Shown here one piece after another: positions 835-47,172 of a DNA stretch of 64,000 nucleotides. Source of the stretch: an uncultured Thiotrichales bacterium. GTDB taxonomy: Bacteria > Pseudomonadota > Gammaproteobacteria > UWMA-0217. The translations under genes and the position numbers were made by a program. Position 1 is the first letter of the stretch; each line of letters starts with the position of its first letter. Location: positions 6,310-70,309 of the forward strand of contig CAYTPO010000142.1 of NCBI GenBank assembly GCA_964439815.1, given 5' to 3'. The notes beneath the pieces were generated by a model. The model saw only the letters and a program-made list of their open reading frames with translations. It did not search any database and was not told the DNA's origin.

Positions 835-1827
835 CTAACCCGTAAACTGCCCATAGGACATCAGCCGCTCGTAACGACGTTCCACCAACTCATCCCTGCT
901 ATAGCTCTTGAGCTGTTGCAGGGCGGCATCAATGGCAGTTGCTATCGCACTGCTGACGGCATCGAGGTCGCGATGCGCACCACCCAGCGGCTCGGGAATG
1001 ATCTCGTCGATCAGCTTCAGCTCCTTGAGCTTTTCCGCCGTGATCCCCAACGCCTCGGCAGCATCAGAGGCCTTGTCGGCACTTTTCCAGAGAATCGATG
1101 CGCACCCTTCCGGCGAGATGACGGAGTAGGTGCTGTACTGCAGCATCATGACATGATCACCGACGCCAATAGCCAGTGCGCCACCTGATCCGCCTTCACC
1201 GATCACCGTGCAGATGATCGGTACCGTCAGCTCCGACATCTCCATCAGGTTGCGAGCGATCGCCTCGCTCTGTCCGCGCTCTTCGGCGCCAACACCCGGA
1301 TAGGCACCGGGAGTATCGATCAACGTAATGATCGGCACACGAAAGCGCTCGGCCAGACGCATCAACCTGAGTGCCTTGCGATAGCCTTCCGGTCTTGGCA
1401 TCCCGAAATTGCGCTTGAGTTTTTCCTTGGTATCACGACCTTTCTGATGACCGATGACCATCACGGTCTGGTCATTGAATCGCGCCAGGCCACCGACAAT
1501 GGCAGGATCGTCCTTGAAGGCGCGATCCCCATGCAGCTCACGAAATTCGGAGAAGAGGGATTTTGTATAGTCGAGGGTATAGGGACGCAGCGGATGGCGC
1601 GCCAGCTGGGACACCTGCCAGGCATTGAGTTTGGAGAAGATCGAGGCCGTCAGACTGCGGCCCTTCTCCTCCAGCTTGGCAATCTCATCCCCCAGATTGA
1701 CCCCGCTACCATCGCCGACATAGCGCAGCTCGTTGATCTTTGCTTCCAGTTCGGCAATCGGTTGTTCAAAATCGAGATAATCCGGGTTCATGTCGTACCG
1801 TTTTCTGGGGAAAATTAGGTTTTGCAA
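835..1827 (-). CDS. accA: Acetyl-CoA carboxylase carboxyltransferase alpha subunit
   Basis: 330-aa ORF, colinear with AccA along its full length ([31 protein letters not shown]..., [13 protein letters not shown]). Confidence 0.95.
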
Positions 1828-2049
1828 CTACTCAGCAAGTAGTCCATATATGCAGTAGCTGCTCAGACTGCCTCTGAAATCCGCCAGATCAAGGTAAAAA
1901 AAACGGGAGCTTGCAAGCGTTGAGTAACCACTTGGCAGTTACCTCTGTGCTTTGCTAAAACGACCATTCTTGACGCAATGACGACAGATTCCAGTATTGA
2001 GCTGAATCATCAATATATTTTATCGAATTAATCAGCTGATGTAACTATT

Positions 2050-2106
2050 CACCTGAATCCTGGTACTCCACCCAACCTGATTTGATGGGGTACCAGGATT
2101 CAGGTG
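2050..2106. repeat. REP-like palindromic element with a perfect 17-bp inverted repeat (cacctgaatcctggtac / gtaccaggattcaggtg) and a 23-nt loop. It sits immediately 3' of the ribBA stop, has no U-tract, and is probably an RNA hairpin or terminator.
   Basis: Inverted repeat read directly at 2050-2066 and 2090-2106. Shares the core CCTGAATCC / GGATTCAGGTG with elements at 27817-27842, 42131-42170 and 25601-25618. Confidence 0.7.
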
Positions 2107-24003: not shown

Positions 24004-24561
24004 TCAGATCTCCATCAACTCCTTTTCCTTGACCGCCAGCAATGCTTCCATCTCCTTGATGGCCTTGTCGGTCAACTTCTGCACCCGATCCTGGGCACGC
24101 CTTTCATCGTCTTCCGAAATTTCCTTTTCCTTCTCAAGCTCCTTGAGATCACTGTTGGCATCGCGCCGAATATTGCGCACAGCCACCTTGCCATTCTCCA
24201 GTTCATGTCGAACGACCTTGACGAGATCGCGGCGACGCTCTTCAGTCAGTGCGGGCATGGGTACTCTGATTACGGAGCCGGCGGTCACTGGATTGAGGCC
24301 CAGATCCGAGGTCATGATGGCCTTTTCCACCTTACCCACCATGTCCTTTTCCCAGGGCGTTACAGCCAGTGTACGTGGATCATCGACATTGACATTGGCC
24401 ACCTGGCTGATTGGAACCTCGGAGCCATAATAATCGACCGTTACATGATCCAGCAGACTGGGATGTGCGCGGCCGGTACGAATCTTCGCCAGCTCGGAAC
24501 TCAGCGCAGCGATGCTCTTGTTCATGCGCTCTTCCGCATCTTTGAGAATATCGTCAATCAT
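24004..24561 (-). CDS. frr: Ribosome recycling factor
   Basis: 185 aa, colinear with Frr. Confidence 0.95.
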
Positions 24562-24566
24562 TTTTG

Positions 24567-25295
24567 TTACCCGTTATATACAAAAGTGCCTATTTCATCG
24601 CCCTGCGCAACTCTGACAAGGTTGTTCGGCTCGTAGATATTGAAAATGCGCAACGGCAGACCATTGTCCCGGCACATGACGATGGCCGTGGCATCCATGA
24701 CACCCAGCTTCTGCTCCAGTGCCTCATCAAAGGTTACCTTGTCGTAGCGAACTGCATCCGGCACCTTGACCGGATCCGCATTATATACGCCATCGACCTT
24801 GGTTGCCTTAAGCAGGATATCCGCCTGGATTTCGATTCCCCGCAGGCTGGCCGCCGAATCGGTCGTAAAGTAGGGATTGCCGGTCCCCGCTGCAAAAACC
24901 ACCACTCGCCCCTTTTCCAGATGGCGAATCGCTCGGCGGCGGATATAGTCCTCACACACCTGATGCACCGTTAGCGCCGACATGACGCGAGTCTGGCAGC
25001 CCTGCTGTTCGATCGCATCCTGCAGCGCCAGTGCATTGATCACCGTTGCCAGCATTCCCATATGGTCACCGGTTACACGATCCGTGCCACCCTGAGCCAA
25101 CCCGGCGCCACGAAAGATATTGCCACCCCCAACGACCAGGGCCACCTGCACCCCCGAGTTCGCCAGTTCGGCGATCTCCTTCGCTACGCGCGCGATCATC
25201 GCCGGCTCGATACCGTAGTCCGAGTCCCCCATCAGGGCTTCACCGCTGAGCTTGAGCAAGATTCGTTTATAGGGCAGATTTGCGGGATCAGTCAT
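24567..25295 (-). CDS. pyrH: UMP kinase
   Basis: 242 aa. [10 protein letters not shown] and GGGNIFRG motifs. Confidence 0.95.
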
Positions 25296-25561
25296 AGGTT
25301 GGGCATTCCTCGTCAGATTGAATTGGTGGGAGTCACTGTACCCGCTTCAGGTGCGGTGACCTTGATTCTGCGCATAAAAAAGGGACATTTTCATGCCCCT
25401 TCTTCTGCCTGAACAGTCTACCAAATTGATCCGCGATCATCAGCCTGAATCCGAGAATCAAGCGAGGATGGTTGATGCAGGATACCGGTTTCGCATTGGC
25501 TCCAGCAAACCCTGGCTTCACCCTTTGGATGAAGCGGGTATTTTCCGAGCCGCTGTGGAAT

Positions 25562-25620
25562 CAGGAGCTTGTGCCAGACACCTTGGTTAAGCTGCGGATT
25601 CAGGTACACTATTTCCAGAC
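25562..25620. repeat. Copy 1 of a roughly 54-nt repeated intergenic element (ccgctgtggaatcaggagcttgtgccagacacc...cggattcagg), located 3' of tsf
   Basis: Aligns at about 75-80% identity with 26749-26802 and 45177-45230, in the same orientation. All three copies sit just downstream of a gene's stop codon. Confidence 0.7.
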
Positions 25621-25652: not shown

Positions 25653-26534
25653 CTAGCTTGACTTGACCTGAGCCATGACTTCTGCGGCAAAGTCTTCCTG
25701 CTTTTTCTCGACACCTTCACCCACCTCGACACGAGAAAACTGCATGACTTTCGCATCGGCATCCTTGAGCAACGCCTCGATGGTCTGATCGGGGTTCTTG
25801 ACGAACGGTTGCCCCAGCAAGGTGACTTCCTTGAGGTATTTCTTCATCCGGCCAGTCACCATCTTCTCGACGATATTATCCGGCTTGCCACTTTCGCGCG
25901 CCTGGGCGGAAAAGATTTCGCGCTCCTTTTCCAGCAACTCTGCCGGCACACCCGACTCGTCGATGCAGACAGGTCGACTCGCAGCAATATGCATAGCGAT
26001 ATCACGCGCCAGTGTTGCGTCACCACCTGCCAGCTCGACTACGACGCCAATACGAACACCGTGGCGATAGAAGCCGATTTCGCCTTCAGAGGCAGTAATT
26101 TTCTCGACGCGACGAACCTGAATGTTCTCACCGATCTTGGAGACCAGCTCCTGACGCGCTTCCTCGACACTCTTGCCATCGGACATGGTCTTGCCGGACA
26201 GGGATTCGGCATCCTCGGCACCTTCAGCCAGTGCGATGGCGCCTGTCTCCTCGGCAAAGCGAATGAAATTTTCATCCTTACCAACAAAATCCGTCTCGCA
26301 GTTGACCTCGACGATCGAAGCCTGTTTGCGATCATCGGCAACCGTGATGATGACCTGGCCTTCTGCTGCGACTCGTCCGGCCTTCTTGACGGCCTTGGCA
26401 GCACCTGATTTGCGCATTGCTTCGATGGCGGCTTCGATATCTCCACCAGCATCAGTCAATGCCCGTTTACATTCCATCATGCCTGCGCCTGTACGCTCGC
26501 GCAGATCCTTAACCATTGCGGCTGTTATGCTCAC
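25653..26534 (-). CDS. tsf: Elongation factor Ts
   Basis: 293 aa. MSITAAMVKDLRERTGAGMMECKRAL N-terminus. Confidence 0.95.
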   Translation of the reverse strand: MSITAAMVKDLRERTGAGMMECKRALTDAGGDIEAAIEAMRKSGAAKAVKKAGRVAAEGQVIITVADDRKQASIVEVNCETDFVGKDENFIRFAEETGAIALAEGAEDAESLSGKTMSDGKSVEEARQELVSKIGENIQVRRVEKITASEGEIGFYRHGVRIGVVVELAGGDATLARDIAMHIAASRPVCIDESGVPAELLEKEREIFSAQARESGKPDNIVEKMVTGRMKKYLKEVTLLGQPFVKNPDQTIEALLKDADAKVMQFSRVEVGEGVEKKQEDFAAEVMAQVKSS

Positions 26535-26748
26535 TTTTGTATAACTCCAGATTGGGTAACTCTATCCTTGCGGGCGCTCTCCCATCCCATCGTTTCTACA
26601 CGACCGGGATCAGACACCGCACCAAGGAAAACCTGTTAATAATGTCCTGAACCCGAGGTTTCAACGGGGATGCATGGTACAAGATACTGGTTTCAAGGTG
26701 GTTTCAGAAAACCCCTGCCACCCATAAGGTCAAGCGGATATTCTAGAA

Positions 26749-26802
26749 CCGCTGCGAAATCAGGAAATCGTGCCAGGCACCTCGTTCAAGCCCCGAATTC
26801 GG
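26749..26802. repeat. Copy 2 of the roughly 54-nt repeated element, in the rpsB-tsf intergenic region
   Basis: ccgctgcgaaatcaggaaatcgtgccaggcacctcgttcaagccccgaattcgg aligns with the copies at 25562 and 45177. Confidence 0.7.
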
Positions 26803-26851
26803 AAATGTGGCAACTGCTCAATGCGCAGCTGCCAGAATGCCGATGAAAGAA

Positions 26852-27679
26852 TCAGGCGTCAGATGATGCTTCCCCAGCGGCTGCAGCCGGTGCAGCTTCG
26901 GCCTGGGCAGGAGCCGGTTCAGCAGCGGCTTTTGCTTCTGCCTCGGCCGCTGCAGCCTCTTCCTGCGCGGCCAGCTGGGCAGCGGCAGCATTGGCGCTGG
27001 CTGCCTTGCCTTCGTTGATCGCATCGGCAATCGCAGTGACATACAGCTGGATGGCGCGAATGGCATCATCGTTGCCGGGAATGACATAATCGATGCCTTC
27101 AGGCGAGTTGTTGGTATCGACGACTGCAACGATGGGGATACCGAGCTTTTTGGCTTCATTGATGGCAATACGTTCGTAGCCAACATCCAGTACGAACATG
27201 GCGTCGGGAATGGTGCGCATGTCCTTGATGCCACCCAACGTCTTGTCGAGCTTCGCCAATTCACGGCGACGCATGAGAACCTCTTTCTTGCCCAGGCGCT
27301 CGAATGTGCCGTCCGTCTCCATGCTTTCCAGCTCCTTGAGACGATTGATCGACTGCTTGACGGTCTTGAAGTTGGTGAGCATGCCGCCCAACCAGCGCTG
27401 ATCGACGAAAGGCATGCCGCAGCGTTGCGCTTCCGAGCGAATGGCATCACGTGCTGAACGCTTGGTGCCAACGATCATGATGGTGCCGCCCTTGGAGGCC
27501 AGCTTGCCGAGATAGTTCATGGCATCATCAAACATCGGCAAGGTCTTTTCGAGGTTGATGATATGAATCTTGTTGCGGGCACCAAAGATATAAGGTGCCA
27601 TCTTGGGACACCAGTAGCGGGTCTGGTGACCAAAGTGAACGCCAGCTTCCAGCATCTGACGCATTGTAACTTTTACCAT
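26852..27679 (-). CDS. rpsB: 30S ribosomal protein S2. The real start is at [19 protein letters not shown].
   Basis: Colinear with ribosomal protein S2. The ORF-track entry carries 8 spurious upstream codons. Confidence 0.95.
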
Positions 27680-27910
27680 TTTCAATACTCCATAGCGAAA
27701 CATTGCGCAGACAACTCAAGAGGTCGCAACAGTGCTTCAGGGGTTAGAACCTCCACATACCCCGACTGACAACCATCATTATTGCGACGGCACCCAGCCA
27801 GCCGTGTCGGTATGTGTGTGAATTTACCTGCCACCTTCAGGTGCAGGCGCGCGCTTTATACCACAAAGAAACAGCTACTCCAACAAAAAAACGGAGCCAG
27901 ACGAGTCCAC

Positions 27911-36962: not shown

Positions 36963-37191
36963 TCAACGCATTCAACCTGCCACCATCCGGAAATCAGAAC
37001 TTGCAGACCATGACGAAAACGATAGAATCCGCCGCTCGCCATTGCAAGCCATCTTGCCCGATCCCTGAATCCGAATCCTGAATCCCAGGAATTCAGGCTA
37101 TCTGTCTGTTCACTCAATATCGGGAACCAATGGCGCCCAACCTGTATGCTGGCCCGACAAACTGGAGAGGACAACCGAGATTCCCAACCCG

Positions 37192-39189
37192 ATGGATACA
37201 CTGAACCCCCAACAACGCGCCGCCGTCGAGCATGTAGGTACGCCACTTCTGGTACTGGCTGGCGCCGGCAGCGGCAAGACCCGGGTCATTACCGAAAAGA
37301 TCGCCTTTCTGATTCGCGAGCACGGTATTGATGCACGCCATATCGCCGCCATCACCTTCACCAACAAGGCTGCAAAGGAGCTGCAGACACGAATTGGCAA
37401 ACTGCTGACAACCAGCGCCGCCAAGGGTCTGCAAGCATCAACTTTTCACACCCTCGGGCTGCGAATCATTCGTCAGGAACTCAAGACGCTGGGTTACAAG
37501 GCCGGCTTTTCCATCTTCGACGCCCAAGACAGCGGTCAGCTGCTGAAAGAGCTGGCGCGCAAGGAGAATATCGAGTCGGCAGACAGTATTCAGTGGCGCA
37601 TTTCCGGCTGGAAGAACGATTTCATCAGCCCTGACCAGGCCTTCAGTACCGCAGAGGACAGCGAAGCGGCCTTTCATGCCCAGCTCTATGAACGCTACCA
37701 ACGCCAGCTCAAGGCCTACAATGCCGTCGATTTCGACGATCTGATCGTCCTGCCAGTCAAGCTGTTCCAGTCCAACCACGAGATCCGCGAGAAATGGCAA
37801 AACCGGCTGCGCTACCTGCTGGTGGACGAGTATCAGGATACCAATGCCTGTCAGTACCAGCTGGTAAAGCTGCTGGCCGGGGTCGAGGGGCGACTGACTG
37901 CGGTTGGCGACGATGACCAGTCAATCTACGCCTGGCGGGGGGCGCGCCCTGAAAACCTAAATCTTCTGAAACAGGACTTCCCCACGCTGGAGGTCATCAT
38001 GCTGGAGCAGAATTACCGCTCCACCAGCCGGATCCTGCAAAGTGCGAACACACTGATCGCCAACAACCCCCATGTGTTCGAAAAGCAGCTGTGGAGTACA
38101 CTGGGTGAAGGTGACCCACTACGGGTCATTCCCTGCAACGGCGCCGAACACGAAGCCGAGCGGATCGTCTCCGAGATCATGAACATCAAGTTCAGAAGGA
38201 AAATCGACTACAACCAGTTCGCCATCCTCTACCGTGGCAACTTCCAGTCACGGCTGTTTGAACGCAAGCTGCGGGAACACGATATCCCCTATTTCGTCAG
38301 TGGCGGCACCTCCTTTTTCGAACGTGCAGAAATCAAGGACATCATCGCCTATCTCCGCCTGATCACCAATCCGGATGACGACGCCGCCTTCCTGCGCACG
38401 GTCAACACCCCGAGACGCGAAATCGGGGCCTCCACGCTGGAAAAACTGGGCCAGTACGCCACCGAGCGAGATACCAGCCTGCTGGCTGCCAGCAGCGAAA
38501 TGGGGTTGGTGCAACGACTGAGCGAACGGGCAGTACTCCGTTTGCAACGCTTCACGGATCAGATCAGCGAATTGGCCTATCGTGCCGAAGAGGCACCCGC
38601 GCTGGTACTGGTCAAATCCCTGTTGAATGAAATCGCCTATGAAGACTGGCTGCGTGAAATCAGCAGCAATGACAGGATTGCCGACAAGCGCATCGAGAAC
38701 GTCAGTGAACTGGTCGACTGGATTAATCGTCTGAGCGCCAAGAAACAGGGTGACACATCACTCAGGGATATTGTCAACCGCATGCAGCTGATGGATATCC
38801 TGGAGCGCAACAACGACTCCGAACACGACAAAGGTGTGCAATTGATGACGCTGCATGCCGCCAAGGGGCTGGAGTTCCCCCATGTCTTTATTGCCGGCAT
38901 GGAAGAGGAGTTGATCCCCCACAAGACCAGCATCGAAGAGGACAATCTGGAAGAGGAGCGCAGACTGGCTTATGTGGGCATTACCCGTGCCCGTCAGTCC
39001 CTGACCATGACCTATGCAAAAAAACGGCAGAAATTCGGCGAGGAAATCGACTGTGAACCTAGCCGCTTTCTGGATGAACTACCTGCCGAACACCTCGAAT
39101 GGGATGATCCCGCCAACGTCAACGAAGCGCGTGCACGGGAAACGGGCCGCAGTCATCTGAAACACCTGAAGGCATTGCTGGGTGACTGA
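37192..39189 (+). CDS. rep: ATP-dependent DNA helicase Rep (UvrD/Rep superfamily 1)
   Basis: 665 aa. LNPQQRAAVEHVGTPLLVLAGAGSGKTRVIT Walker A and DEYQDTN motifs. The size matches Rep. Confidence 0.85.
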   Translation: MDTLNPQQRAAVEHVGTPLLVLAGAGSGKTRVITEKIAFLIREHGIDARHIAAITFTNKAAKELQTRIGKLLTTSAAKGLQASTFHTLGLRIIRQELKTLGYKAGFSIFDAQDSGQLLKELARKENIESADSIQWRISGWKNDFISPDQAFSTAEDSEAAFHAQLYERYQRQLKAYNAVDFDDLIVLPVKLFQSNHEIREKWQNRLRYLLVDEYQDTNACQYQLVKLLAGVEGRLTAVGDDDQSIYAWRGARPENLNLLKQDFPTLEVIMLEQNYRSTSRILQSANTLIANNPHVFEKQLWSTLGEGDPLRVIPCNGAEHEAERIVSEIMNIKFRRKIDYNQFAILYRGNFQSRLFERKLREHDIPYFVSGGTSFFERAEIKDIIAYLRLITNPDDDAAFLRTVNTPRREIGASTLEKLGQYATERDTSLLAASSEMGLVQRLSERAVLRLQRFTDQISELAYRAEEAPALVLVKSLLNEIAYEDWLREISSNDRIADKRIENVSELVDWINRLSAKKQGDTSLRDIVNRMQLMDILERNNDSEHDKGVQLMTLHAAKGLEFPHVFIAGMEEELIPHKTSIEEDNLEEERRLAYVGITRARQSLTMTYAKKRQKFGEEIDCEPSRFLDELPAEHLEWDDPANVNEARARETGRSHLKHLKALLGD

Positions 39190-39567: not shown

Positions 39568-39602
39568 CAGCACGCCATCAAATCAGGTTTGATGGCGTGC
39601 TG
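39568..39602. terminator. Strong hairpin with a 15-bp perfect stem (cagcacgccatcaaa / tttgatggcgtgctg) between convergent genes; there is no clear U-tract
   Basis: Inverted repeat read directly, with loop tcagg. Confidence 0.55.
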
Positions 39603-40918: not shown

Positions 40919-40941
40919 ATAGATTCATGATAAAAAAGTTG

Positions 40942-41017
40942 GGTAACTACTCAGCTACTGCTTGTCCGAACTACTCGCCGAGCAACTACAAAGCTGGTAA
41001 CTACTCAGTGAGTAGCC
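40942..41017. promoter_or_regulatory. Cluster of short direct repeats immediately upstream of the metallophosphoesterase gene. GGTAACTACTCAG occurs exactly twice (40942-40954 and 40996-41008), with degenerate AACTAC copies and inverted GAGTAGCC copies nearby.
   Basis: Read directly. Related AACTACTCAG motifs occur at 1824-1845 upstream of accA and at 42188-42201. Confidence 0.5.
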
Positions 41018-41064
41018 GGTATTTGCCGTAGCTGCCCGGACTTCAGGAGCAAGCCGAGTAGCCA

Positions 41065-42130: not shown

Positions 42131-42175
42131 TACCTGAATCCGAGAATTAACCTTGGCTTCAGGTGCTCAGTGAGC
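42131..42175. repeat. REP-like element (tacctgaatcc...ccttggcttcaggtgctcagtgagc) of the CCTGAATCC / TTCAGGTGCTCAG family
   Basis: Shares the 13-mer ttcaggtgctcag with 2094-2110 and the arm cctgaatcc with 2052-2060. Confidence 0.55.
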
Positions 42176-42375: not shown

Positions 42376-44349
42376 CTATATGGAATCAGGCCCCATGTGA
42401 CCCATACCTTCCGCCTCGGTCTCGGGGTTATAACTGATCAGGCATTCCCACTTCACCTTCTTCAGGCTCCACATACCGGTTTCCTTGTCGTAGGTGCTGT
42501 TGACGAAGCATTTCCAGTTGTCATCATCCACGGCCAGAAAGTCCGTGCGGTAGAAGTACCCCGGATAACGGGTCTCTTCACGGAACTGGATGTGCTTCAT
42601 GTGCGCCGTGGCGGCCAGGATACGGTGGTGATTCTCCCAGGCACGCAGCAGTTCATGCAGGTCTTTTGCTCGCGTTTTGGTGGCATCTTCACGCAACATT
42701 TCCAGTTTGCGCTCGGCGACTCCCAGCATCACCGCGTTGGTCTGGTACATGGTGGAGACGCCAGCCACATATTCATCCATGATTTTCTGCAGACGGAACT
42801 GCAGCATCCTGGGCGTAATGTAGTTGGGATTGACATCAATGGCTGTGGTGTAGTCCTTGTGCTCCAGAAAGGTTCTTACCGGAGCATAGATTTCTTCCAC
42901 GATCTCATTTACCGGACGATCCAGCTCGCGTTTCACGTCCTTGGTATCGATGACATATTTGACCATCGCCTTGGCGGCAATCCGTCCTTCGGTAAAGGAG
43001 CCCGAGCTGAATTTGTGGCCTGAGGCGCCGACACCATCACCAGCTGTAAACAGACCATTGACCGTAGTCATGCGGTTGTAACCCCAATGGTAATGATCCG
43101 GTGAGCCTGGCAGATCTTCGGGACCCGATACCCAGATCCCAGCGCAGCCTGCGTGGGAACCCAACAGGTACGGTTCGGTAGGCATCAGTTCGGATACGTC
43201 CTTGTCGGGCTCGATATTTTCCCCTGCCCATACACCGCACTGCCCGATGGTCATGTCGAGAAAGTCTTCCCATGCTTCGGCTTCAAGGTGCTTGATCTCC
43301 TTGGGCGTCATGTTCTTCGCCAGGTTGGCCATGGCAGTAGGCGTGTCTATGAAGATCGGGCCACGACCTTCCTTCAATTCCTTCATCACGAGGTGGTTGC
43401 GCAGGCAAGTCCCCATATGGAACCCTTTTGCATACTGCGAGGCATTGACGTTTTCAAGCTCCTTGTAGTTCTTTTCCTGGTAGTCTTCGCCAAAGGCGTT
43501 GGTGGATTTGGCCTTGAACAGAAGAAACCAGGCGCCTACGGGTCCGTAACCATCCTTGAAGCGGGCGGGCACGAAGCGGTTTTCCATCAGGGTCAGTTCT
43601 GCACCAGCTTCTGCGGCCATCGCGTAGGTGGAACCGGCGTTCCAGACGGGGTACCAGGCACGCCCCATACCTTCGCCCACCGAGCGGGGACGGAAGACAT
43701 TCACGGCACCGCCACAGACTAGCAGGCAGGCTTTGAATCTGTAGATGTAGACCTTGTCTTCACGTACCGAGAAGCCGGCGGCTCCAACTACGCGAGTAGG
43801 GTCATTCTTGTCATTGAGCAATTTGACGATAAAGACGCGTTCCTGGATGTTTTCTGCGCCCAGAGCCTTCCTTGCGGCTTCTGCAACGATCCATTTGTAG
43901 GATTCGCCATTGATCATGATCTGCCAGCGACCGGAGTTGACAGGCGTACCGCCCTCTTTCAGGCTCTTGTCTTCTTCGCCTTCCTTCTTCCAGATTGGAA
44001 GCCCCCATTTCTCGAAGTTGTGAACAGAATCATCGACATGACGGCCCACATCGTAAACCAGATCTTCACGCGTCACCCCCATGAGGTCGCCACGGACATA
44101 GCGCACATAATCCGCAGGATCATTCTTGCCCATATAGGTGTTGATGGCTGACAGACCCTGTGCAACTGCACCGGAACGATCCAGGGCAGCCTTGTCGACC
44201 AGTTTCACGCTGATGTCATGGCCGTCAGCCTTGGCGGCGTCTGTCCAGCGTTTGAGTTCGAAGGCACATCCGCAGGCAGCCATGCCGCCTCCAATCAGAA
44301 GGATGTCTACTTCTTCCTCAACAACATCTGGGTTGCCGAATCCGCTCAT
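42376..44349 (-). CDS. aprA: Adenylylsulfate (APS) reductase alpha subunit
   Basis: 657 aa. FAD-binding ILLIGGGMAACG, DRSGAVAQGLSAINTY, GLPIWKKEG, and a C-terminal HMKHIQFREETRYPGYFYRTDF matching AprA. Confidence 0.85.
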   Translation of the reverse strand: MSGFGNPDVVEEEVDILLIGGGMAACGCAFELKRWTDAAKADGHDISVKLVDKAALDRSGAVAQGLSAINTYMGKNDPADYVRYVRGDLMGVTREDLVYDVGRHVDDSVHNFEKWGLPIWKKEGEEDKSLKEGGTPVNSGRWQIMINGESYKWIVAEAARKALGAENIQERVFIVKLLNDKNDPTRVVGAAGFSVREDKVYIYRFKACLLVCGGAVNVFRPRSVGEGMGRAWYPVWNAGSTYAMAAEAGAELTLMENRFVPARFKDGYGPVGAWFLLFKAKSTNAFGEDYQEKNYKELENVNASQYAKGFHMGTCLRNHLVMKELKEGRGPIFIDTPTAMANLAKNMTPKEIKHLEAEAWEDFLDMTIGQCGVWAGENIEPDKDVSELMPTEPYLLGSHAGCAGIWVSGPEDLPGSPDHYHWGYNRMTTVNGLFTAGDGVGASGHKFSSGSFTEGRIAAKAMVKYVIDTKDVKRELDRPVNEIVEEIYAPVRTFLEHKDYTTAIDVNPNYITPRMLQFRLQKIMDEYVAGVSTMYQTNAVMLGVAERKLEMLREDATKTRAKDLHELLRAWENHHRILAATAHMKHIQFREETRYPGYFYRTDFLAVDDDNWKCFVNSTYDKETGMWSLKKVKWECLISYNPETEAEGMGHMGPDSI

Positions 44350-44401: not shown

Positions 44402-44866
44402 TCAGCCGGCACGAAATTGTGACATGTCACAACTGTGTGTGCCTTTGGTGAACAGGGTCGAGTGGTCAGCGATTTCCTCCAGGACTGCATCGTTCTCGCC
44501 ACCATAGGGATCAGCTGAACCTTCTGGCGTGGTACGAATGGGAAATTTGAATCGCTTCATGTTGCCATTGCGGAATTTAATGGTCCAGATGATGGAGTCT
44601 GTGCCTCGCAGAGGCTGGACACTGCCCCCCATCGGTACCACATCGGCATAGGAGCGACATTCAATGGCATTCTGTGGACAGATCTTGACACAGCTGTAGC
44701 ACTCCCAGCACTGTTCCGGTTCCTGGTTGAACGCTTTCATTGCATGGCCAGTCTCGGAGCCATCCGAATCGAGTTTCATCAGGTCATGCGGGCAGATGTA
44801 CACGCACGCCACTCTATCCTGCCCCTTGCAACCATCACATTTATCGGTACGTACGAACGTAGGCAT
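44402..44866 (-). CDS. aprB: Adenylylsulfate reductase beta subunit (iron-sulfur)
   Basis: 154 aa. Two [4Fe-4S] ferredoxin-like Cys clusters (CDGCKGQDRVACVYICP and CWECYSCVKICP), plus the AprB-specific C-terminal tail. Confidence 0.85.
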   Translation of the reverse strand: MPTFVRTDKCDGCKGQDRVACVYICPHDLMKLDSDGSETGHAMKAFNQEPEQCWECYSCVKICPQNAIECRSYADVVPMGGSVQPLRGTDSIIWTIKFRNGNMKRFKFPIRTTPEGSADPYGGENDAVLEEIADHSTLFTKGTHSCDMSQFRAG

Positions 44867-45176
44867 GGGTTTACACCTCCTGGTTGTCTAAAATCGAGTC
44901 ACCGAGCATCTTTGCAGGCTTCCCTTCCCCGATAGGTTTCCTGCTTGCGCAAGCCGACCAGGCTGCAGGTCTTCCTGCGGGAAAACGCAAGGTTAGTCCC
45001 TTCAATGCCTAACCTCAAATATGTAAGTTTATGCAAGCTATAAACCGAGCTTATGAATCCATTGAAAAGACTCTGAATCCGAAAGTTGGACAAGATTAAA
45101 AGGTGCAAGAGGTTGGTTTCGCGGTAGTTTCAAGGATTTATCACCTCACCTGCAGGCCGAGCGGGTATTTCTTGAT

Positions 45177-45230
45177 CCGCTATGGAATCGAGAGCTTGTG
45201 CCAGTCGCCTCATTCAAACCCCGGACTCAG
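45177..45230. repeat. Copy 3 of the roughly 54-nt repeated element (ccgctatggaatcgagagcttgtgccagtcgcctcattcaaaccccggactcag), upstream of aprB
   Basis: Aligns with 25562-25620 and 26749-26802. Confidence 0.7.
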
Positions 45231-45249
45231 AAAGCACAGAGCAAAAACG

Positions 45250-45278
45250 AAAAAAGGCCAGCAAAGCTGGCCTTTTTT
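45250..45278. terminator. Rho-independent terminator (A6-ggccagc-aaa-gctggcc-T6), 3' of the GlyGly-CTERM protein gene
   Basis: Stem at 45256-45262 / 45266-45272 with flanking A-run and T-run. Confidence 0.8.
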
Positions 45279-45292
45279 CAATCCTCATCAAA

Positions 45293-46807
45293 TCAGTGGC
45301 GTCGACGACGCAATCCGAGGAAGCCGAATCCAGCGAGCATCAGCCCCATGGCACCACCACCGCCACCACCACTGGAAGAAGTATCATCCGTTGTTGGCGT
45401 GGTAGGTGTAGTTGGCGTAGTCGGGGTAGTAGGTGCCGTAGGTGTGGTTGGTGTCGTGGGGGTGGTTGGCGTAGTCGGGGTGGTTGTATCCTTACCGAGA
45501 TCAGCCGGTGCCACACATTTGCGCAAAGCGATACCAGACAGCGCTACAAGATTGTAGTTATCTTCCTTGATGTTGCTGTTTCTGACCTCAAGAGTCGCCT
45601 TGTTGCCGGGCTCGGGATCAACCTGCAGGCTGATCTGATGCCATTGGTCCGTTGTCTTGTCTTCAACCAGAGTAAACACGGGTGACGTGGCAGAGCCGGC
45701 CACCAATGTAATTTCAGCATCATCTCCACCAGTTCCAATAACTTCCGATACCGGAGCAGGATTGGAAACCCACACCTCAAACTGGTATTTGGCTTTGGGA
45801 TCAAGCCCGGAAACCGTTTGCATCCAGATTCCGGGACCACCTGACACACCAGCACCGGATGCCAGGAGGTAGCCCGGCGCCTTGTCCAACGCAGGAATAT
45901 CACCCGCCTTCTTGGCGCCTGGGAACGGATATTGGAAATGAGACAGGTCTGTAATCGTGATATTACTGGCCGGCGCAACACCAGGTGCCGCAGCAATCTC
46001 GGTCACCAGCGCAACCTCCTTGTAATTGGCAAAGGTGTTGTCTCCCACGAATTTGTAGTCACTCTTGAAGGATTTGGCGATGAGGCTATTGGGAGGTAGC
46101 GGGGTAGTCTTGCCATCGGCACCTTTAGGCAGAGCACCATGTGGTGTTGAGAAATCACCATTAACCACCTTATTGGTGGTATCCGGTACTGTCCCTTGAG
46201 GACAAACCGATGCATGGGCAGATGGGGCTGATGGCAATATGAAGGTTGCGGAATCCGTCTTGCCGTTCATGTCTGCAGTCGAGGTAAAGGGCCCCTTGTT
46301 TGCAGTACCCACATCAACGGTGACGTCATAACGAACAATAATGGAAGAATAGGGAGACAGCTTCTCCTTGTCTGCGAAAATCTTGTCGCCCTTGTCAGCT
46401 CCGGTTGCTACCCCGGCAAAACCAGGATTCAACGTCAGGGTTGCATTCTGAAAATTGGCCTTGGGTTTTTTTGTGCTGTTCTCATCCTGTACCACCTCAT
46501 CCAGAATGGTCAGATTCTCGACCTTTACCGAATTGCGGATCGCTGCAGGAAAACTGTTCTTGATGGCGTCTGTAATCTGTACTTCCACAGCTGCAGGAGG
46601 CGTTCCCGTCGCGGGAATGGTGTCGTCATTAATGATGCGTTGCTGTATAGAGAAAGTATATTTCGTTCCGACGGCTGTAATTGGTCCCTTCACCTCACGC
46701 AGAAACTGCAAGGCAGCATCGACATCCATACTGAATGTAAGGCTGGAAACAGCCAGAACACCTGCTGCCAATGGAGTGAGTGAGAAAAACTTGCGACTTT
46801 TCGACAT
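45293..46807 (-). CDS. Secreted protein with a Thr-Pro repeat linker and a C-terminal GlyGly-CTERM-like sorting signal (candidate rhombosortase substrate). The real start is MSKSRKFF.
   Basis: Signal peptide. C-terminus reads (TTP)n...SSSGGGGGGAMGLMLAGFGFLGLRRRRH, a Gly run followed by a hydrophobic helix and an Arg cluster. Confidence 0.6.
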   Translation of the reverse strand: MSKSRKFFSLTPLAAGVLAVSSLTFSMDVDAALQFLREVKGPITAVGTKYTFSIQQRIINDDTIPATGTPPAAVEVQITDAIKNSFPAAIRNSVKVENLTILDEVVQDENSTKKPKANFQNATLTLNPGFAGVATGADKGDKIFADKEKLSPYSSIIVRYDVTVDVGTANKGPFTSTADMNGKTDSATFILPSAPSAHASVCPQGTVPDTTNKVVNGDFSTPHGALPKGADGKTTPLPPNSLIAKSFKSDYKFVGDNTFANYKEVALVTEIAAAPGVAPASNITITDLSHFQYPFPGAKKAGDIPALDKAPGYLLASGAGVSGGPGIWMQTVSGLDPKAKYQFEVWVSNPAPVSEVIGTGGDDAEITLVAGSATSPVFTLVEDKTTDQWHQISLQVDPEPGNKATLEVRNSNIKEDNYNLVALSGIALRKCVAPADLGKDTTTPTTPTTPTTPTTPTAPTTPTTPTTPTTPTTDDTSSSGGGGGGAMGLMLAGFGFLGLRRRRH

Positions 46808-47172
46808 GGAATTACCTTTAGTACAGAAATGTTTATAGTGTGGTATCAATCTGGAGAATCCGTGGCAGCGTACCCAATATAAAGCCACCTTCAGACCACG
46901 GGTTCATGGCGCGACCGGGTTTTGAACTCCAGATCCAGCAAGCCCTGCTGAATTCTTCATGCTGCCCTGATATATCGGGCATTTCCCTGATCGTAGCACG
47001 GTGCGACAACCCAAAACTGTGACGCAGTTGCAAGCACACCTGACTATGGCGTCTGCGACAGAAAAAAAGAGAAGCTTTACTTCAATCCAATTGATTATAG
47101 TGCAAACCGCCCACTGTCGTAACTTCACATAGGAAGACAGAGCTACCATACATAACATTCATTTCCCAGTAC

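Follow-up and report, generated by a model that had tools for sequence, protein, structure and literature searches.

The window, that is, the whole 64,000-nt stretch of DNA analysed here, comes from an uncultured Thiotrichales bacterium and carries three copies of a repeat (w1, w2 and w3), all of whose flanking genes are on the minus strand. Two of these copies flank tsf (25653-26534, stop codon at 25653): w1 (25444-25604) lies between this gene and pyrH (24567-25295), beyond which is frr (24004-24561), and w2 (26646-26803) lies in the spacer between rpsB (26852-27703) and tsf. Directly upstream of rpsB, Rfam recognizes the t44 leader (RF00127; 27743-27838, minus strand; 66.4 bits), consistent with the gammaproteobacterial S2 autoregulatory leader. 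The third copy, w3 (45072-45230), lies upstream of aprB (44402-44866, start codon at 44866) and aprA (42376-44349), on the other side of which is a gene (45293-46888) for a secreted protein of 531 aa, whose Gly-rich C-terminal anchor ends in RRRRH. Just before the part encoding this anchor, a 9-nt tandem repeat of 10 units (45372-45493) encodes a (T-T-P)n linker.

The copy w1 occupies the tsf 3' UTR, with the tsf stop codon on one side and the intrinsic terminator of tsf (GGGGCATGAAAATGTCCCTTTTTT; 25376-25399, minus strand), which is kept in relatives, on the other; since this terminator is downstream of w1, the copy is co-transcribed with tsf. The borders of w3 are the terminator of the secreted-protein gene (45248-45280) and an AT-rich region upstream of aprB.

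Extent and architecture of the repeat unit

An earlier note on this DNA had described a 54-nt element in three segments of like orientation, 3' of tsf, of rpsB and of the secreted-protein gene. The positions, orientation and gene contexts of all three segments are confirmed, but alignment of wider stretches around them indicates that the 54-mer is only the right-hand (3') third of a palindromic unit of 158-161 nt, homology extending some 105 nt leftward past it and stopping abruptly at both sides. The segment at 25562-25620 consists of the right arm of w1 and 16 nt of flank. The three copies, all in the plus orientation, measure 161 nt (w1; 167.7 bits and E = 5e-41 with a covariance model of the unit), 158 nt (w2; 149.9 bits) and 159 nt (w3, the most decayed; 130.5 bits), and this model, run with filters off, detects three full copies and no more in the 64 kb. 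Pairwise identity among them is 62-70% over the whole unit and 70.9-74.5% over the right-hand ~55 nt, the latter slightly lower than the 75-80% quoted in the earlier note; it is because of this higher identity that the right-hand part alone was noticed earlier. The unit contains no ORF, reading frames being broken by indels between the copies.

Every unit opens with CCTGAATCCG and closes with CGGATTCAGG. These ends are terminal inverted repeats (TIRs), perfect over 10-13 bp, of the form CCTGAATCCG(TGG)...(CCA)CGGATTCAGG; the pair CCTGAATCCGTGG / CCACGGATTCAGG is perfect over 13 bp in the young copies found in other genomes (see below) and over 10 bp in w1. Words resembling GGA(A/T)TC(A)GG had been reported at the two ends of the 54-mer as direct repeats. 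The words do exist, yet each forms the 3' half of a separate stem, of which one is an inner stem and the other the right TIR; they are not direct repeats of one another.

The two halves of the element are complementary almost end to end, such that one strand is predicted to fold into a long, imperfect single hairpin whose tip is small and branched. The predicted RNA fold of the plus strand reaches -72.2 kcal/mol for w1 (z = -4.9; minus strand, -56.7 kcal/mol, z = -1.7), -66.7 kcal/mol for w2 (z = -5.7; minus strand, -62.4 kcal/mol) and -44.8 kcal/mol for w3 (z = 0; minus strand, -37.0 kcal/mol). For the young copies, predicted energies range from -77 to -92 kcal/mol, compared with -45 to -72 kcal/mol for the copies of the window.

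Dispersed copies, target duplications and empty sites

One exact-pattern scan of species-representative genomes and one of metagenome contigs, both with the conserved 19-base core as the query, revealed eight further full copies in uncultured Gammaproteobacteria. Five are in MAGs named 'Gammaproteobacteria bacterium' (LH_M37, two copies; GH5, two copies; TamC13-13, one copy) and three on metagenome contigs (one of Ga0209475 and two of Ga0316209). These foreign copies are 160 nt long, 87-99% identical to one another and bounded by 13-bp perfect termini, with sharp boundaries beyond which the flanks are wholly unrelated. They are inserted between maf and rng, tmk and holB, and secG and nuoA, and upstream of ppiD, of an mrp/apbC-like gene and of a sigma-54 response regulator, all of which are unrelated housekeeping spacers; no gene was found to be common to the carrier MAG loci and the window. 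The same scans also matched the window's own species on Ga0256914 contigs (L016, L022; 99.8-99.9% identical), and the remaining matches were chance matches within genes. In blastn searches with the consensus or w1, plasmids, E. coli genomes and phages all proved negative, while in viral contigs the core pattern had no match and the TIR pattern chance matches only.

We note that another contig from the metagenome that holds the window's species, Ga0256914_1071564, carries the right half only of the element (L017, 101-185), 87.5% identical to the right arm of w1 and abutting unrelated sequence; it arose either by truncation or by recombination.

The sequences immediately outside the units bear the mark of insertion. 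Over the 11 independent copies, the 5-nt left flank matches the 5-nt right flank at 42 of 55 positions, where 19.1 matches are expected on re-pairing flanks between copies, and none of 36,565 derangements of the flank pairs reached 42. Four of the 11 copies have perfect 5-bp target-site duplications, namely AATGT in w2 (26641-26645 and 26804-26808) and TTGAA, TGTAA and TCTAA in others; two more match at four of the five positions. The targets are AT-rich and conform roughly to T-N-N-A-A.

Sites without the element are found in four relatives with 85-86% identical Tsf (GCA_054018095.1, GCA_054045645.1, GCA_054012415.1 and one ENA contig; L033, L035-L037), which have in common with the window both the tsf terminator and the PqiA/rpsB/tsf/pyrH/frr/uppS/cdsA synteny. 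The element is absent from their rpsB-tsf spacer (83-90 nt) and their tsf-pyrH spacer (208 nt). The nearest named Tsf proteins are those of a Thiotrichales MAG (74%) and Allochromatium (67%). Orthologous aprB loci also lack the element, but their upstream context differs, and they have no bearing on the w3 site.

Taken together, the element shows the features by which MITEs are recognized: a length below 500 bp with neither a transposase gene nor any other ORF, TIRs, a flanking duplication, and 11 dispersed sites along with empty orthologous spacers. The three 54-nt repeats are very probably parts of old, decaying copies of a ~160-nt non-autonomous DNA transposon of this type. The 'mobile miniature element' that the earlier note had offered as one of three possibilities is borne out by the TIRs, the 5-bp duplications, the near-identical copies dispersed elsewhere and the empty orthologous sites. 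A point against the MITE reading is that a high copy number is not demonstrated, because the exact-pattern scan yielded 11 independent copies in all and no more than two per MAG. The family is previously undescribed and is bacterial selfish DNA of an ordinary kind. It testifies to transposons having once been active in a lineage of uncultured, sulfur-oxidising Gammaproteobacteria, where two independent insertions bracket tsf within an operon that ranks among the most conserved and most highly expressed.

By the mechanism that we envisage, a trans-acting DDE-type transposase from an autonomous IS would recognize the termini, insertion would proceed by 5-bp staggered cuts at AT-rich T-N-N-A-A-like targets in intergenic spacers, and repair of the staggered cuts would generate the 5-bp direct repeats. 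A search of the window and 42 loci for a TIR pair 0.7-3 kb apart enclosing a transposase returned only chance 8-mers inside genes and no autonomous partner, for which reason mobilization in trans is a step that we infer. Once inserted, the copies would be transcribed passively along with their neighbours (w1 as part of the tsf 3' UTR, w2 from between rpsB and tsf, w3 in front of aprBA), and the analogy of ERIC and Correia elements suggests that they may incidentally affect the processing or the stability of mRNA.

Strand asymmetry and the weighing of alternatives

The two strands of the element are not equivalent. Mismatches between the arms of the young copies comprise 8-10 G·T and 0-2 A·C (about 9:1), and because of this excess of G·T their plus strand is 22-30 kcal/mol more stable in the predicted fold than their minus strand. 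The orientation of insertion is biased as well: in all seven spacers between co-directional genes (those of w1, w2 and w3, maf-rng, tmk-holB, lon..ppiD and secG-nuoA), the strongly folding plus strand is antisense to the genes (two-sided binomial p = 0.016), while in spacers between divergent genes both orientations are found. Some of the young copies lie very tightly inside operons, one of them 2 nt after the maf stop codon (locus L010, 1797-1956) and another between tmk and holB (locus L002, 1459-1618), 25 nt from the stop codon of the former and 19 nt from the start codon of the latter, and must therefore be transcribed within polycistronic mRNAs. Both the G·T/A·C asymmetry and the uniform orientation count against a purely neutral double-stranded DNA parasite, which would not obviously predict either. 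In the interpretation that we prefer, insertions placing a near-perfect hairpin in a polycistronic mRNA may be counter-selected through polarity or through RNase cleavage of the type known from Correia and ERIC elements (PMC10969869). A connection with the direction of replication, or with an ssDNA step, is a conceivable alternative. The asymmetry and the orientation bias together offer a modest, testable example of how selection on MITEs within operons might depend on their orientation.

The same two observations could instead mean that selection acts on the hairpin in single-stranded form. Either folded ssDNA on one replication strand would be mobilized or recognized by a novel enzyme that still yields 5-bp duplications, or hosts would tolerate or use only the weakly folding orientation as an operon-internal RNA module; we regard this alternative as unlikely.

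It is very unlikely that the element is a selected cis-acting structured RNA, such as a 3' UTR stabilizer or processing site, an attenuator or an sRNA gene, kept to regulate tsf, rpsB and aprB. The strong predicted folds of w1 and w2 would suit such a role, as would the position of both copies inside the transcription unit of rpsB and tsf and ahead of the tsf terminator, the several G·U pairs that are invariant in all 14 sequences compared and the 7/7 orientation bias. Against it, the strongly folding strand is the one antisense to the flanking genes, the fold of w3 is no better than that of shuffled sequence, the closest relatives lack the element in the same spacers, and elsewhere the element adjoins unrelated genes (maf-rng, tmk-holB, ppiD, secG-nuoA). 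The earlier note, which had also proposed a structured 3' UTR/sRNA module or a protein-binding site, suggested searching Rfam and assessing covariation. No Rfam family was matched at the gathering threshold anywhere in the window apart from t44, which lies outside the element, and E-value mode on the window copies and one MAG copy returned only sub-threshold miRNA-hairpin noise. Covariation, for which RNAalifold and a count of pairs could draw on about four independent lineages, lends no positive support: 95% of cells are paired and double changes occur in three of 38 pairs, no more than in shuffles, 235 of 500 column shuffles reaching the observed value. Neither a sigma-70-like promoter nor an intrinsic terminator was found inside the element.

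Polymorphism points the same way. Of the eight SNPs between the window and the same-species metagenome contigs, four lie in the elements, whose share of the compared sequence is ~8-11%. The copies gain SNPs faster than the genes beside them, and this enrichment therefore gives no sign of purifying selection. The difference in conservation between the right and the left arm (60% and 44% invariant columns, respectively) does not reach significance (p = 0.13). Nothing indicates that the copies are selected for a role in mRNA, and neither of the two functional proposals of the earlier note is supported as the primary nature of the element. The conserved intergenic blocks by tsf, rpsB and aprB should accordingly not be annotated as regulatory RNAs.

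A palindromic element moving as folded ssDNA (REP/RAYT-like, IS200/IS605-derived or attC-like), with no part for a DDE transposase, could account for the greater stability of the plus strand and the ~9:1 ratio of G·T to A·C in the young copies, and for an orientation that is uniform relative to co-directional genes, these genes being probably co-oriented with replication. Such ssDNA systems make no target duplications, however, whereas here the 5-bp duplications differ between copies and yet match left to right. The perfect TIRs and the length of 160 nt are moreover unlike those of 20-40-nt REPs, integron context and attC core sites are lacking, and none of the loci showed a Y1/HUH or integrase gene in the vicinity. 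We consider this route highly improbable.

Finally, chance or low complexity as the source of the similarity between w1, w2 and w3, for which only the short length of the originally reported segment could speak, can be dismissed on account of the E-values (1e-40 to 1e-44 with nhmmer; 1e-31 to 1e-41, 130-168 bits, with the covariance model), of a degenerate 20-mer core with exactly three matches where 0.28 are expected even with three mismatches allowed, and of homologues with identical boundaries in other genomes, all of which uphold the earlier claim of similarity above background.

Affinities, decay and relics of the probable MITE family

Like other prokaryotic MITEs, the new MITE is shorter than 500 bp and lacks an ORF, has TIRs and short duplications that erode with age, occupies AT-rich intergenic sites, yields a transcript that would form a stable stem-loop and is polymorphic for presence and absence (PMC10969869). 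It differs from them in that no named family was found that is related to it in sequence, and a literature search for its terminal sequence returned unrelated primers only. Among known systems, ERIC/IRU elements of Enterobacteria and Yersinia are similar in being imperfect palindromes of 130-160 nt that lie in transcribed operon spacers and 3' UTRs and form a long RNA hairpin. ERIC elements duplicate TA, unlike the new MITE with its 5-bp duplication, and there is no sequence similarity between the two: blastn (word size 11) gave no match of the element in 5,426 complete E. coli genomes, which carry copies of ERIC (127-bp consensus). The effect of ERIC on mRNA depends on the strand that is transcribed and involves an RNase E site (PMC10969869).

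The Correia elements of Neisseria (CREE/NEMIS) are likewise MITEs of ~100-160 nt with TIRs, inserted in operons. They are distinguished by a TA duplication, 26-bp TIRs of different sequence and an IHF site, none of which is seen in the new MITE. Correia transcripts undergo RNase III cleavage at their paired TIRs (PMC10969869). A comparable RNase III-type cleavage is plausible, by analogy, as a side effect of the new MITE.

TIMEs, the MITEs derived from Tn3, resemble the element in their 5-bp AT-rich target duplication and their long stem-loop (-70 to -115 kcal/mol). Inverted repeats of the Tn3 family begin with GGGG. Those of TIMEs are conserved over 38 bp, and the elements are ~262 bp long and usually single-copy (PMC4133298). 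Identity with TIMEs was rejected, as the termini described here begin with CCTGAATCC and are perfect over 10-13 bp, the 38-bp Tn3-family repeats are absent and, beyond a general stem-loop shape, only the 5-bp AT-rich duplication is shared. REP/BIME sequences are GC-rich palindromes of 20-40 nt without target duplication and with an associated RAYT gene; they were likewise discarded, the unit being 160 nt with TIRs and 5-bp duplications and no RAYT having been seen in the loci examined.

With respect to a parent element, 5-bp duplications are made by the ISAba11 group of IS701. Members of the IS1380 family (e.g. ISEcp1) have CC ends and make 4-5-bp duplications, often at AT-rich sites. The new MITE begins with CC and makes 5-bp AT-rich duplications, two generic features that it would share with the IS1380 family; it differs in that no transposase or full-length IS with its termini was found. 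An IS1380-type parent would be compatible with these features, with the ISAba11 group as an equal candidate.

The MITE family is no longer active in this genome: in most copies the target duplications are gone and the hairpins have become much less stable. The window copies have diverged by 24-30% from the foreign-copy consensus in a star-like pattern, w1, w2 and w3 being 76, 76 and 70% identical to the MAG consensus, respectively, compared with 62-70% to their siblings. Their substitutions are biased from AT to GC in a host of 55.6% GC, and A·C mismatches between the arms have risen from the 0-2 of young copies to 7-10.

Three further intergenic sites in the window keep collapsed termini only (covariance model E = 0.008-0.1, with ~0.1 such match expected), as interior deletion of a long palindrome would produce. 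Downstream of aprA (42133-42163, plus strand), the left terminus CCTGAATCCGAGAATTAACC is joined to a right terminus ending ...TTGGCTTCAGG and the interior is missing (nhmmer E = 0.007; covariance model 17.8 bits, E = 0.008). In the spacer upstream of a 665-aa ORF (start at 37192), the sequence CCTGAATCCGAAT, a spare left terminus, precedes a mini-hairpin, CCTGAATCC-CAG-GAATTCAGG (37063-37100, plus strand; covariance model E = 0.08). The third site is a 53-nt hairpin (2052-2104, plus strand) with the same termini, CCTGAATCC...GGATTCAGG, and 26-nt arms that are 88% complementary (covariance model E = 0.1); it has the right flank TGCTCAG in common with the relic at 42133 and may be an internally deleted derivative of the MITE.

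A second dispersed repeat family, characterized by GTAACTACTCAG-type words, was encountered in the window (1810-1900 and 40929-41060) and in GCA_054018095.1 (L033, 2313-2475). In the latter genome, the rpsB-tsf spacer holds a ~160-nt insertion of this second family, while the empty spacer of its sister genomes measures 83-90 nt. With the MITE in the window and a second-family element in GCA_054018095.1, this spacer has therefore been struck independently by two small elements in two lineages, and the presence of two different elements there shows that it tolerates 160-nt hairpins.

The same words, TTCAGGTGCTCAG, follow both short hairpins (2052-2104 and 42133-42170), and the sequence past 42163 (GCTCAGTGAGCAG...CAACTAC) resembles the second family; these shared words and this resemblance suggest that the relics at these sites are composites of the two families. 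We also note a small, perfect-looking hairpin at 39572-39598, ACGCCATCAAATCAGGTTTGATGGCGT, whose loop and arm words, CCATCAAATCAGGTTTGATGG, recur in the interior of the hairpin at 2050-2106.
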